64,000 nt of DNA, taken from assembly GCA_964016885.1 (NCBI GenBank), contig OZ024755.1:3596001-3660000 (forward strand), given 5' to 3'. The notes beneath the pieces are model-generated. The model was not told the DNA's origin, ran no database searches, and saw only the letters and a program-made list of their open reading frames with translations. The DNA comes from Eledone cirrhosa (lineage: Eukaryota). This document shows positions 52,951 through 61,200 of the stretch, piece after piece. Numbering within the stretch: position 1 is the first letter of the stretch; the number at the start of each line of letters is the position of its first letter. The position numbers and the translations under genes were made by a program.

Positions 52951-53012
52951 AGATTCCCTCTTTTAAAAACATTGATCTTGTGTAAAGAAATGGAAATATA
53001 TTATGTTCTTAC

Positions 53013-53201
53013 CTTTAAGAATATAAGTAAGGTTTGTTGTTGAGCGTGACCTAGAATATCTGTTTGGAGGTAGTGTAGGATTGCAATAGATAAATAGATT
53101 TGGTAATCAGCTCCTAGACAGCAGCAGGTACAAATGTAGTGGACAATATCTGACCAATCTAAATAGTTCCAGAAACACTGTTGAAGCCATTGTTGACACA
53201 C
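53013..53201 (-). CDS. TBC1D32: TBC1D32 exon [63 protein letters not shown]
   Basis: gacag| ... AAG|gtaag; 63 codons; QCFWNYLDW motif. Confidence 0.94.
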
Positions 53202-56200
53202 CTGTCATTGGAATAAGGTCAGAAGTGATAATATGGTAAAGGTACTGAGCTGTTGGCAGTAAAGGTGACACACCTGTCATTGGAATAAGGTCAGAAGTAA
53301 TAATATGGTAAAGGTACTGAGCTGTTGGCAGTAAAGGTGACACACCTGTCATTGGAATGAGGTCAGAAGTGATAATATGGTAAAGGTACTGAGCTGTTGG
53401 CAGTAAAGGTGACACACCTGTCATTGGAATGAGGTCAGAAGTGATAATATGGTAAAGGTACTGAGCTGTTGGCAGTAAAGGTGACACACCTGTCATTGGA
53501 ATGAGGTCAGAAGTAATAATATGGTAAAGGTACTGAGCTGTTGGCAGTAAAGGTGACACACCTGTCATTGGAATGAGGTCAGAAGTGATAATATGGTAAA
53601 GGTACTGAGCTGTTGGCAGTAAAGGTGACACACCTGTCATTGGAATGAGGTCAGAAGTAATAATATGGTAAAGGTACTGAGCTGTTGGCAGTAAAGGTGA
53701 CACACCTGTCATTGGAATAAGGTCAGAAGTGATAATATGGTAAAGGTACTGAGCTGTTGGCAGTAAAGGTGACACACCTGTCATTGGAATAAGGTCAGAA
53801 GTGATAATATGGTAAAGGTACTGAGCTGTTGGCAGTAAAGGTGACACACCTGTCATTGGAATGAGGTCAGAAGTGATAATATGGTAAAGGTACTGAGCTG
53901 TTGGCAGTAAAGGTGACACACCTGTCATTGGAATGAGGTCAGAAGTGATAATATGGTAAAGGTACTGAGCTGTTGGCAGTAAAGGTGACACACCTGTCAT
54001 TGGAATAAGGTCAGAAGTGATAATATGGTAAAGGTACTGAGCTGTTGGCAGTAAAGGTGACACACCTGTCATTGGAATGAGGTCAGAAGTGATAATATGG
54101 TAAAGGTACTGAGCTGTTGGCAGTAAAGGTGACACACCTGTCATTGGAATGAGGTCAGAAGTGATAATATGGTAAAGGTACTGAGCTGTTGGCAGTAAAG
54201 GTGACACACCTGTCATTGGAATAAGGTCAGAAGTGATAATATAGTAAAGGTACTGAGGTGCTGGCAGTAAAGGTGACACACCTGTCATTGGAATAAGGTC
54301 AGAAGTGATAATATGGTAAAGGTACTGAGCTGTTGGCAGTAAAGGTGACACACCTGTCATTGGAATAAGGTCAGAAGTGATAATATAGTAAAGGTACTGA
54401 GGTGCTGGCAGTAAAGGTGACACACCTGTCATTGGAATAAGGTCAGAAGTGATAATATGGTAAAGGTACTGAGCTGTTGGCAGTAAAGGTGACACACCTG
54501 TCATTGGAATGAGGTCAGAAGTGATAATATGGAAAAGGTACTGAGCTGTTGGCAGTAAAGGTGACACACCTGTCATTGGAATGAGGTCAGAAGTGATAAT
54601 ATGGTAAAGGTACTGAGCTGTTGGCAGTAAAGGTGACACACCTGTCATTGGAATGAGGTCAGAAGTGATAATATGGTAAAGGTACTGAGCTGTTGGCAGT
54701 AAAGGTGACACACCTGTCATTGGAATGAGGTCAGAAGTGATAATATGGTAAAGGTACTGAGGTGCTGGCAGTAAAGGTGACACACCTGTCATTGGAATGA
54801 GGTCAGAAGTGATAATATAGTAAAAGTACTGAGGTGCTGGCAGTAAAGGTGACACACCTGTCATTGGAATGAGGTCAGAAGTGATAATATGGTAAAGGTA
54901 CTGAGGTGCTGGCAGTAAAGGTGACACACCTGTCATTGGAATGAGGTCAGAAGTGATAATATGGTAAAGGTACTGAGCTGTTGGCAGTAAAGGTGACACA
55001 CCTGTCATTGGAATGAGGTCAGAAGTGATAATATAGTAAAGGTACTGAGGTGCAGATAGTGTCATTCACTTGTGTAGGAAGTGCAATATTGCATAATAGC
55101 AAAAGAGGAGTATTAAATGAAGAGGATGTGTAAGGTTAGCATTCATGAACAATGAAACGCAAACGAGCTGAGGGGAAGCAACTGCAGTGTGTAAGAGAGA
55201 TGAGAAGACTGCTCTGGTACAGACATGTGATGTGCATGTAAGATGACAGCTGGGTACAGAAATGTCAAAGAGACTATAATAAATGGTAAGAGCTGGAAAA
55301 GACCCATTCAACATATGCAAGCAAAGAAAATAGACATAACATGGTGATGATGATGATTTAATGTTTCAAGAATGATTAAATAAAATTACAATAAAAAAGC
55401 AATGAAAACACACCTGGATAGATGAAAATCCCGACATTGTAAAGGCAGCTGCTACTAATGGCAACTCAATTTGTAATAAAAAGTCAACATAATGAGCTGT
55501 CGTTGAATAAAGTACAGATATTCCACTTGCTATTTGGTCAACCTATGAACGATAGAAATAGAACTGAGTAAAGTTTTAGAATTGAATAAATAATATATGT
55601 GTGTTAAACTTATGTATAATAGAAATAGGGTTGATTTAACACTTTAGCATTTAAACTGGCCACATCTGGCCATATTCAGCTAGAATTCTCTCACCTCATT
55701 CTGTTCAAACTGACTAACTGGCCACTTATACTAACATTAAGGTATTGTTCTCAAAATAAATAACAACATCAAAATCTTGTAGATTCGAAATTATGTGAGA
55801 TAAACTCTTTACCACAAAAATACTATAGTAAAGTAATGTAAATGCTAAAGGGTTAAGTTTTAGATTTGAGTAAATATATGTGTGTATGTATTCAACCTAT
55901 GTATAATAGAAATAGGGTTATTTAAGGTTTAGACTTAAGTAATTATGAGGGTCGACTGGCAAAGCTAACATTGGTGGGATTTGAACTCAGAACATAAAGG
56001 GTCATAACTATATGCCATCTCTCACAGATGATATAACTGATAAACGCTTTAGAAGTTATTGAAATCTTTATAGTCAACACCTTGTTTAATTGCCAGTCTA
56101 TTTCCATTTCATTTATATTGTTTAATTTCTTTGAAAAATAAATCATGTCTGTTAAAGCTCTTAATTTTTATGTCTACCTAGAGAAGACCAGAAACAACTG

Positions 56201-58166
56201 CAGCATAACTAGTGTCATAAACTATAATGATGTTATGGCAGGCAATGTCAATAAAATGGTCATGCTACTTTTATATAAGAGAGACAAACATGAAAGATCT
56301 ATTTTTGTCAGCAATATTTTGCCATAAAATCTTTTATTTTATGTTTTGGGCAGTTAAAAATAATATTTCTTTAAATTTACACAGTTTTTATATTAAAAAA
56401 CATAAAAACAAGTGGGGTGGGCTTAATGAAGGCATGTGGCATAGTGGTTAGAGAATTGGATTTGTAATCATGATGAGAAAAGCAACACTTACCACCATTA
56501 GAGAGTACATTGACCAGAGAAAACAACACTTACCACCATTAGAGAGTACATTGACCAGAGAAAAGCAACACTTACCACCATTAGAGAGTACATTGACCAG
56601 AGAAAAGCAACACTTACCACCATTAGAGAGTACACTGGCCAGATAAATCTTGATATTGATAAAGGAGATATATTTGTCAACAGTTTCATAGTTCGTTCTT
56701 TATCTCCTTGGAATATCAGGAAGATGGAAGCAACAAACCAGTCAAACATTTTGTATTTACTTTGAAGATATTCTGATAACATTTAAGGAATATTTCTTTG
56801 AAGAAGAGTACAAATGACAAAACTTTCAAAACTCATGAATTGAATTCTGTATTTGTATATATATATTTGTATATATATAAAAGCTGACCATACCCAATTG
56901 CACCTCTCAAGGGCGATGACACACGATCGTGATCTCTGGTGTCACGCAATAATACAGAAGACCCGACTTCCCACGGGTACAAGCCGAAGCTGAAGCATAT
57001 AGAAAATATGCCCCCACCCCCTCCCACTGCAAAAAAGCACCCAGCCCACTCTGTAAAGAGGTCGTGGAGACGCCACGGAAAAAAAAGCACCCAGCACACA
57101 CTGTAAATGAGGTTGGTGTTAGGAAAGGCATCCAGCTGTAGAAATCAAGCCAGAATCAGTTCCCGTATGAGCAAGACAAGGTCAGCCGACTGGACACTGC
57201 CCACAACAGGACAACCCATCTAACCCATGCTAGCGTGGAAGAACGGACGTAAAACGGTGATGATGATGATGGTGATGATATGTACACCTAGTTTGAACTC
57301 ATCATTTAGTACAAGTATAATTCTTTTGAAATGTTTCTTTAAAATAGGTAAACACTAGTTTTAGTAGAATAGCTTCAAGTGATTATGATTTCAATTACAG
57401 TTGCAGTTGACATAATCTTTAGCTACTTATGACAATGTGATCAAACATCATAAAGTCACGACTTTATAGAAAATGGATGACAAGAAAAAAAAAAGAATTG
57501 TTATTCATATATTTACTTACGTGTTGCTCCTATAAACCAAATATTTATTTACTGGTTTATTTTTCAATTTAAATGTTTACTTGTCTATAGTCTTTCATAC
57601 TATTGTATTATTACAACCGATATTTAACAAGACACAAATCACAGTAATCTTTCTTGATTTATACCATTACTTATTTTTCAAAGATGAACTAGACAAGTTA
57701 ATAATATCTATACAATTTTAGCCAACAATGTTTGCATAGACAGATGTTAACACCTTGTCTGCTTGCATTTACATCTGTTTATACATATTAATGGCTAAAA
57801 TTCTTTAGTTATGTTCTGTAACACAGCGAAGCATTGGAACTGTTAATGCATCAGTAATTTAATAACTAAAATGTAATGGAGGTTGACAAGCATAGTTTAT
57901 CCTTTCCTAAACCTCATAACAGTAAATGTAGTGTGGCTGAATGGTAAAGAAGCTTGCTTTGCAATCATTAGGATCTATGTTTGATCCCTCTGTAAAGTAT
58001 CTTGGGCAGGTGTCATTTACCATACATAGCCTTGGGTCGTACCAAACTAGCTTATATATATCATCATCACTGTTTTATGTTGGTGTCTCCACACTAGCAT
58101 GGGTTAGACAGGTTGTCCTGTTGTGGGCAATGCCAGGTCAGGTGACCATGTCTTGCTCATACAGGA

Positions 58167-58211
<45 letters not shown>

Positions 58212-61200
58212 TATATGAACAGATTAAAGTTTAAGCAAAGAATCGCTGCTTTTACCCTTTAACGGGATCTTCTGAAATTATATATATATATATATAATCC
58301 TTATTGAGCTCTCTTCGGATTTTAGTCTTCACATTTATTATTATTATTATATATGGCAGGCTTCCACACCACTTCTGACTACCAAAGTTCACTCAAAGAA
58401 TATTAGACAACCTAGAACTATGTTAGAACACATTTGCCCATGTTACAGTGCAGTAGGATTAAACTAAGAATTATTATCATCTTGCAAGCAGGGAAAAAGC
58501 GGACGTAAAATGAAATGATGATGATGATGATCATTGTCATCATTGTCTTAATGACAAAGCCATGTCTGGTTGTTCTGTACTTTACACACAACAAAAAGGA
58601 TACTAAGTTGGCACCGTTGCTGCTGTTTTTCTTGTAGCAATCCTGACACTTGCTTTAAAAGCCATTCAAGATTTCCAGCATTATTAACATTATCTGATAA
58701 TAAACCCAGACTTTCTCCATATCTGAAACAAAAGAGTCAAAATAAAGATAAATGAATGAGCTAAAGATAGAATAAAAATATATCATTATCTTCTTCTTCG
58801 CCTACTTATTCCTGAAAGGGTCGTGTGGAATAAGTTATTAAATTGCTGCTATTCCTTGGCCGTTAGAAATAACTGAGATAATATTATGAGGTAGAAATGG
58901 GCTCCATAAACCATGGAGAGAGCAACTTGTCTAGGAGAGCAGTTACTCTAAATAAAAACTGATTCAGAGTAGAGAAAACCTATCAGTCCGATAGATCAAC
59001 CTCTCTAGTGCTGGTGGCATGAATAATGCCAGTCCATGTTGTAAAGTTGTTGGTAATAAGAAGGGCATTCAGCTAGTAAAACCTCGCCAAAACTATAGAA
59101 AGTACAAAAATATATAGGTAAATATTTGGAGAATATAAAGACTGTTATATTACCGAACTGCTAATGGGAGAATATAGAGACTGCTAATGCTATCCCATTA
59201 ATAAAGACTGTTATATTACCGAACTGCTAATGGGAGAATATAGAGACTGCTAATGCTATCCCATTAATAAAGACTGTTATATTACCGAACTGCTAATGGG
59301 AGAATATAGAGACTGCTAATGCTATCCCATTAATAAAGACTGTTATATTACTGAACTGCTAATGGGAGAATATAGAGACTGCTAATGCTATCCCATTAAT
59401 AAAGACTGTTATATTACCGAACTGCTAATGGGAGAATATAGAGACTGCTAATGCTATCGCATTAATAAAGATTGTTATATTACCGAACTGCTAATGTTAT
59501 CCCATCAAGTTGCTGTTGAGATAGGTCAGGATGAACATCTGCAAGGAAGGAAACAAAAACATTATTAGATAATAAATTAAAAAAACACAGCTATAAAAAG
59601 CTAAAATCTGATCTTGTGCCTAAAGTAGAAACAATTATTTAAGCCTTTAGTTAGCAACCCTAGCAAACCAGCTCTAGTTCTATGAAATAAAACCATCCAT
59701 TTTAAAGGTTTCCTATTTAAGCTGAATTTCACCATCTTTGTTAGATTTTTCAATTAAAACTTAAAATTGTAAATAAACTTGACAAACCTGATATTGTCTG
59801 AGAAACATTGGTTGGAGTAGATTCCAGTTGAAGTGATACAGTTTGTTCTAGAAGTTGTTGGACAACTGAAGAAGAATCAACAATATATAAGGTAAGACTT
59901 AGATAATATCACTTGTTAGAGACTGTATACACATGTACACACATATAAACATGTATACATACACACACATACACATGTGGTCACATACATACACAAGTAT
60001 ACACACATATACACACACACATGCATAGTCCCGTAACTTCTGAGGTAGTTGTAGGGGCGCTGTGTTGACATACATCATTTCTAAGGTATTTTAAAACCTG
60101 GCAGAGTCCAATCCTCTCCAGGTCTGAATACAATAGAATTCCTCCAAAGAAGGAAAGAGTAAGTGAGAGAATGGAAGTGAGGAAGAATCGACCCCAGTAT
60201 TAGACTGGTACTTTTAGGATAGAGAGAGAGTGAGAGAATGGAAGTGAGGAAGAATTGATCCCAGTACTTGACTGGTGCATTTTTTATTCTTGTCAGAAAC
60301 AACCATCTCCAACTGATCCAGCTGGATCCCTAAAGACCAGCCAAGCTCATGGATGTTATCCAACCATCTTACTGTGTGGTGGGGGTAGGGTAGGTAAAGA
60401 GTTTGTTTTGTAAATATGTAGATCTGAGTTTAATCCAGCTGGATTTGAGTGAATTGGAGCAATGTGAAATAAAGTGTCTTGCTCAAGGACACAACATATC
60501 ACCCAGTTCAAAAATTGAACTCACAACCTCACGATTGCAAGCCCAATGCTTTAGCCACTAAGCCATGATGAGTATATTGTGAAATAAAACTGACCACTTC
60601 CTTGTATGTGTTGTGGTGTAGTAGAGAGTACATTATGAAATACTTTCTGTATTTCTATCAACCATTCCATGGAAAGGGATGTGTTCTGACTGGTCAGTAA
60701 TTTTAGTAAGTCAGGATCTGCAATAAAAATAGCAAGGTTTTATTTTATTGATTAATGTAATCAACCAGGTGCAATAAATAAATCATGTGTGACAATTTAT
60801 AGAGAAAGGCAAACCCACCCATCCAGCTGTAAAACTAATTAGCTAGGCAATCAGTGAGATGTGTAACCTCTAATGAGCAAGCTAGTCAATGCTGGCTCAG
60901 GTAACATACAGCTAACAGTTGACACTACAAATATCCTATGTCCCGCTAACTAATTCTACAGATTTCATTTCAAAAGTTATTTCATGAAATGTAATTATTT
61001 TTATTAAAGTAAACAATGACCTGATGGTTAGAAGGCTTGGGGTATGATCGTAATGTTGTCGGTTCAATTCCTGGACGGGGTGATGGTTTGTGTTCTTGAG
61101 CCAAACATTATATTTTACATTGCTTCAGTACACTCAGCTGAGAAGTAAGTACCAGCAAGAACTGGGGAGTTATACCTGTGATAGACTAGCATCCTGTCCA

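Follow-up and report, generated by a model that had tools for sequence, protein, structure and literature searches.

The 3′ splice site of exon 32 of a gene identified by similarity as the ciliary gene TBC1D32 (BROMI) is amplified in Eledone cirrhosa as a 72-bp minisatellite with 26 near-identical acceptor copies, and a spliced molecule joins exon 31 directly to the last of these. At a probability of roughly three in four, we regard the array as a tolerated "mirage", in which splicing of the mRNA goes directly to the last copy and the 25 copies upstream of it are likely passed over. The amplification itself had been proposed in an original prediction made from the letters of the DNA, and it was verified here by TRF and by a count of 26 motif copies.

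The window, i.e. the whole stretch of DNA that was analysed, comprises 64,000 nucleotides of E. cirrhosa contig OZ024755.1 (positions 3,596,001 to 3,660,000 of the forward strand), and the coordinates given below refer to it unless another record is named. Adjacent matches to the Pfam profile BROMI_C (295-334 in exon 31 and 336-398 in exon 32), together with 90% identity of exon 32 to the Octopus sinensis protein broad-minded (P0003), identified the gene by sequence similarity as octopod TBC1D32, in line with the prediction. All features of the junction lie on the minus strand, and their boundaries were set by alignment to P0003 and by a contig from sequencing run X4. Exon 31 (55414..55542) has 43 codons and a 3′ end reading CAG. 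It is followed by the natural 5′ splice site GTGTGT (55408..55413) of intron 31 (53202..55413), which is 2212 nt long, or ~0.41 kb without the extra units, and is absent from the X4 contig. Exon 32 (53013..53201) has 63 codons, starts with Val-Cys and ends at the donor AAG|GTAAGA at 53012. When P0003 was mapped on the window and 200 kb alongside it, 32 minus-strand exons and 30 resolved introns were obtained (intron 17 was left out). The 33rd and last exon was located on the plus strand at G000:C15:4530221, where it immediately follows an N gap; it lies on a stretch (G000:C15:4529004-4530350) that is 0.88 Mb away and on the opposite strand. In the window, a 200-N scaffold gap follows a 3.5-kb AT repeat (48932..49131), the last exon of the gene lying beyond another gap. 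Since the X4 contig joins the last exon to exon 32, the scaffold piece between the two N gaps is likely inverted. TBC1D32 is whole despite the scaffold break, and the spliced contig corrects the scaffold at this end of the gene. Across the junction of exons 31 and 32, the sequence SSIQVCQQW is shared, without an insertion, by four relatives that are named or clustered (P0003-P0006); P0007 and P0008 from the P0003 cluster were rejected as unrelated 40-aa pieces. A metagenome scan with exon 32 gave 185 pattern matches, none of which was confirmed. Among other features of the region, where 385 candidate ORFs were listed around TBC1D32, a 78-bp repeat in four copies (L027:486-799) lies ~140 nt downstream of the stop codon of TBC1D32 and probably belongs to the 3′ UTR, and stop-free frames of 513 codons (31409-32947, minus strand) and 396 codons (L028:7921-9108, plus strand) are probably mobile-element remnants.

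The array was delimited by TRF as a period-72 minisatellite at 53194..55049, with 25.8 copies and 97% matches. On the minus strand, the acceptor and exon-start motif CCAATGACAG|GTGTGTCA recurs 26 times in exact 72-bp steps, and the first exon-side base of these AG|GTGTGTCA rungs runs from 55001 to 53201. There are hence 25 upstream pseudo-acceptors, the first at 55001, and one exon-proximal unit (53202..53273, minus strand) with the acceptor in use, the junction of the X4 contig being located at 53201. Each unit consists of the first 8 nt of the exon, a short filler that resembles sequence within the unit or nearby, and the 3′ end of the intron with its CAG. A branch-like CTGAC in every unit puts the A at -18, and both CTGAC and CAG|GTGTGTCA are kept in all 26 copies. 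As in mirages, the unit thus spans the intron-exon boundary (intron end, AG and 8 exon bases), and the splice signals are retained in 26 of 26 copies. Among the 25 full units only seven columns are variable and the mean pairwise identity is 97.6%; ten units are identical, the variants are interspersed among the units, and all 26 rung sites are alike from -12 to +8. Most individual rungs, for whose identification unit variants had been proposed, are therefore indistinguishable by short reads. A genome search with one unit returned at least 26 matches, all at the TBC1D32 array. A fold of three units of RNA gave -27.8 kcal/mol and, being without a shuffle control, was set aside.

A counterpart of the array was present in a second species (organism B, run X5). 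A contig of 1288 nt carries exon 32 at record positions 67-269, with 9 differences from the window in 203 nt, while a piece of the intron displayed 37 differences in ~315 nt (~12%). Unit-like pieces were found at 325-388 (9 differences in 64 nt) and 646-688 (4 in 43), at 86-91% identity; they also cover some of the filler sequence and are followed by letters resembling the unique flank. At the same site, organism B holds ~420 nt that include two or more additional, diverged copies, the first at a spacing of 62 nt, as compared to 1856 nt of homogeneous array in E. cirrhosa. That a shorter and diverged array occupies this site in the related species makes an old founding duplication likely. We infer that it is shared by both species, and that expansion and homogenisation took place in the E. 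cirrhosa lineage.

Use of the last copy was observed in run X4. None of the eight runs is recorded as RNA, but X4 was read as such since its contig joins three exons. The query 52965-53310 yielded a contig of 500 nt at a depth of 5.1, which covers 53012-53204 with 0 differences and has two loose ends, one of 54 letters starting with exon 31 from 55417 and one of 253 letters starting with the last exon. This contig represents a spliced molecule that uses donor 55413 and joins 55414 directly to the last rung at 53201, and across the exon 31/32 junction the transcript and the proteins of the relatives are colinear. Regular mRNA from the authentic site, another trait of mirages, is thereby demonstrated as a presence by one contig; contigs at depth 5 drop rare variants, and that X4 gave no contig on the 72-bp unit is, at this depth, no evidence of absence. 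In the frame of the exon, a unit encodes 22 residues and then a stop, and every upstream rung, as well as two internal AGs that were tested, leads to a stop that precedes the last junction. This was in agreement with the earlier claim that use of an upstream acceptor results in a premature stop. By the 50-55-nt rule, a stop that far before the last junction would trigger NMD.

The following course of events would account for these observations. A tandem duplication that comprised the intron end and the first 8 bases of the exon, together with a short filler, may have founded the array before the two species split, and ordinary minisatellite turnover could later have expanded and homogenised it. 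The proximal acceptor would be chosen by exon definition, as it delimits an exon of 189 nt versus 261, 333 and up to 1989 nt for the upstream rungs. The upstream copies would be ignored, probably because only the last copy is coupled to the body of the exon with its strong donor, and any leak to an upstream rung, with a stop well before the last junction, would be cleared via NMD. The donor-like start of the rungs would be a by-product of the Gln|Val-Cys codons.

This donor-like start was the core of the original prediction. The natural donor of intron 31 reads CAG|GTGTGT (55414/55413), and splicing to a rung would remake the same nine bases from -3 to +6. As a possibility contained in the sequence this stands; positions -3 to -1, however, belong to exon 31 itself, so that their identity is given by construction, and the coincidence between rung and donor amounts to six bases, four of them beyond the GT. 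We scored site strength with a leave-one-out matrix from 30 introns of TBC1D32 alone. The natural intron-31 donor ranked 12th of 30 and forms about one more U1 pair than the rung donor does; the rung acceptor ranked 28th of 30. Exons that start with GT are found in 4 of 30 cases in the gene, and the exon after intron 18 regenerates CAG|GTGAGC (9.5 against 8.6 bits for the natural donor) where no array is present. This latter exon (G000:C15:3672182, L007), with its slightly stronger regenerated donor and a weak acceptor, is a candidate annotated RS-exon in its own right. A donor-like start of exon 32 (GTNTGY) is to be expected because the Gln|Val-Cys codons are conserved, and it is nothing unusual and older than the array.

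The prediction had gone further and had envisaged a recursive ratchet, 72-nt mini-introns and a tuning of NMD by copy number. Exon 31 would often be joined to an upstream rung, CAG|GTGTGT would be remade and the product re-spliced down the array, or nested rung-to-rung introns would be removed first. Every rung indeed offers an AG|GT with positions +1 to +6 of a working donor, the regenerated donor is a reasonable one by its rank, and upstream rungs are transcribed first. With the next donor 72 nt further on and the stop, each unit might serve as a 72-nt cryptic exon and comes near to the cryptic RS-exons of Drosophila, which according to the available text of PMC8605326 measure ~50 nt and often contain a stop. 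Recursive splicing has also been reported in small and medium introns in the part of PMC10156609 that was accessible, the array has persisted in two species that are ~12% apart over the intron piece, and variation spares the 20 columns around AG|GT (0 of the 7 variable columns; P ~0.09 by hand, which is not significant). All such routes end in the normal mRNA, with which the X4 junction is compatible.

Several features nevertheless speak against recursion. The rungs possess the AG|GT that regenerates a donor equal to the natural one from -3 to +6, but lack the pyrimidine-tract acceptor: besides the rank of 28 out of 30, none of the 26 rung YAGGT sites matched Y5+N0-4YAGGT, the motif that serves to nominate human recursive sites (Hoppe; PMC10156609, available text). 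Intron 31 measures 2.2 kb where more than 10 kb would be typical, and the Drosophila ratchet points described in the available text of PMC8605326 are mostly in long introns and ultraconserved. There, the donor of the ratchet point is stronger than that of its cryptic exon, whereas a rung donor is the same as the donor of the next unit downstream. Moreover, the correct junction itself carries the regenerated donor, yet exon 32 is retained in the X4 contig. The regenerated donor is therefore at least partly silent after splicing, like that of EJC-repressed RS-exons. For human, the accessible text of PMC6224609 gives 3.6% as the share of exons that regenerate a donor; 93.8% of those are constitutive and are retained through the EJC. 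The same source suggests that flies may lack such retention. No intermediate was present in the one spliced X4 contig (depth 5). With a direct junction, a weak acceptor and a failed motif, none of the three proposals received positive evidence. Recursive rescue lacks support, yet it is not refuted, as a recursive path would yield the same mRNA; we consider it unlikely. It is equally doubtful that the minisatellite is self-rescuing, with every acceptor copy a ratchet point and mis-splicing corrected by re-splicing, and we would give no better odds to such rescue having let the array persist through the species split and reach 26 copies.

Alternatively, the upstream rungs could sometimes be used without any rescue and their products degraded, the length of the array lowering TBC1D32 output. 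The rung most likely involved would be the penultimate one, giving an exon of 261 nt. This would be in line with the sameness of the 26 sites from -12 to +8 and with the stops that the upstream choices and the two internal AGs bring in before the last junction, which does exist. A product of this kind was, however, not seen in the one spliced X4 contig at depth 5, and known mirages are described without aberrant mRNA in the available text of PMC3087553 and PMC3902484. We therefore regard leaky use of the upstream rungs as rather unlikely, and the direct use of the last copy remains the preferred reading.

The reads also bear on the reality of the array. One X1 contig runs from exon 32 into the last 72-bp unit and a second one leads out of a unit into the unique flanking sequence; X1 contigs made up of units only have depths of 18-57 versus 3 and 5.4 for the two contigs that cross into the flanks. 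The 72-bp array is thus present in reads, and the copy number of 26 comes from the assembly only. X1 and X3, whose DNA contigs contain the unit, are one sample, possibly that of the assembly, and do not represent an independent individual. Of the eight runs, X1 and X3-X6 were set against the window. When 85% likeness was allowed, interspersed repeats at 55190-55400 and 55600-56020 dominated the comparison, which makes its joints and loose ends uninformative, and the RAD run X6 covers neither the 72-bp unit nor exon 31. That the array is false or inflated through misassembly is highly improbable: the end of the gene is mis-scaffolded 4 kb away and X1-X3 are probably the source sample, but variants are interspersed among the units, X1 contigs cross both edges of the array with unit depth well above that of the flanks, and copies occupy the same place in the second species.

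Junction-spanning arrays were found at three further places in TBC1D32. An array of 4.1 copies of 42 bp (56475..56647, minus strand; TRF and P0003 alignment) copies the intron-30 donor GTG|GTAAGT, the true donor being at 56617. Here a strong donor is present four times, and splicing at the second copy would lengthen the protein by 14 residues and at the third by 28, in frame and without a stop; the first copy alone is consistent with the proteins of the relatives. An array of 5.5 copies of 66 bp (59135..59496, minus strand; TRF and P0003 alignment) copies the intron-28 donor, with the true donor at 59483; this weak donor is present six times, and a stop follows immediately after the true one. 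The fourth junction array of the gene, in intron 3 (G000:C15:3716075-3716242, L011), has a 32-bp unit and five identical CAG|GTAAAT donors. A minisatellite of 48.5 copies of 63 bp (G000:C15:3712574-3715594, L011) starts 33 nt past the intron-4 donor and does not span it. The 32-, 42- and 66-bp arrays are all located at donors and are without the acceptor-donor property; such rescue is therefore not needed for an array to persist in TBC1D32. The idea that units are multiples of three (72, 42 and 66) was dropped, as the fourth unit is 32 bp and the first spacing in organism B is 62 nt.

As controls, THOC2 (32 exons mapped) and VPS8 (41 exons) were picked beforehand, with exons located by tblastn. 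In these two genes, none of 22 arrays touched an exon match, where 2.1 were expected at the loosest setting. Arrays were present at 4 of 64 junctions in TBC1D32 and at 0 of 142 junctions in the two control genes (Fisher P 0.009, or 0.028 without the index array), and with the index array excluded the excess over chance in TBC1D32 had a P of 0.014-0.13, depending on the setting. TBC1D32 thus looks like a local hot spot for junction arrays, while a general, genome-wide enrichment is not supported by this small sample.

As it stands, the 72-bp array is another tolerated junction-spanning minisatellite, in a group for which no description was found: our literature search returned none of recursive splicing through a minisatellite or of octopus junction minisatellites, and a review with both minisatellite and recursive-splicing themes handles them separately in its available text (PMC13196383). 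The array offers a clean natural system in which to study the choice of one acceptor among 26 near-identical ones, and it also suits the question whether a regenerated donor rescues a wrong choice. If recursion were true, the expansion of a VNTR would be linked to the birth of recursive splice sites, in bulk.

The claimed match to ratchet points and to intron gain through AGGT held for the AG|GT, but failed for the pyrimidine tract, the long intron and the new intron. Like recursive sites, and judged by the available descriptions, the rungs have an AG|GT junction that remakes a donor, and exon 32 satisfies, by its sequence, the definition of an annotated RS-exon; unlike ratchet points, they combine a weak pyrimidine tract with a short intron, tandem copies and a unit that has diverged between species. 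In the model of Rogers, as given in the available text of PMC4974935, tandem duplication of an exonic AGGT creates an intron. The duplicated AG|GT segment in TBC1D32 likewise gives GT..AG intervals, but it is mostly intronic and lies inside an existing intron, and 72 nt is far under the shortest mapped intron of the gene (249 nt). No new exon or intron absent from orthologues was seen, the transcript and the proteins being colinear.

The closest likeness is to the mirages of amphioxus, which the accessible text of PMC3087553 and PMC3902484 describes for Adh3, the globins BflGb6 and BflGb9, troponin C and PGBD5. These are tandem repeats over an intron-exon boundary with units of 10-160 bp, many of which keep AG/GT signals; they include acceptor-side cases, give normal mRNA and were proposed as a path to intron gain. 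In BflGb6, as in TBC1D32, the 3′ end of an intron and the start of the exon are copied. The present array differs in that it belongs to a mollusc, has 26 copies at 97.6% mean identity versus 3-6 copies in BflGb6, has copies that are also donor-like (AG|GTGTGT), is one of four arrays in the gene and recurs in a second species. A second parallel is the 37-bp VNTR in intron 7 of human F7, where, in the available text of PMC1557585, identical pseudo-donors are able to function yet stay silent, splicing taking place at the exon-proximal site. In F7, too, the first minisatellite unit spans the exon boundary and the exon-proximal site prevails; there the donor is copied and was tested in minigenes, whereas the 72-bp array copies an acceptor. 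The direct analogues of F7 are the 32-, 42- and 66-bp arrays of TBC1D32.
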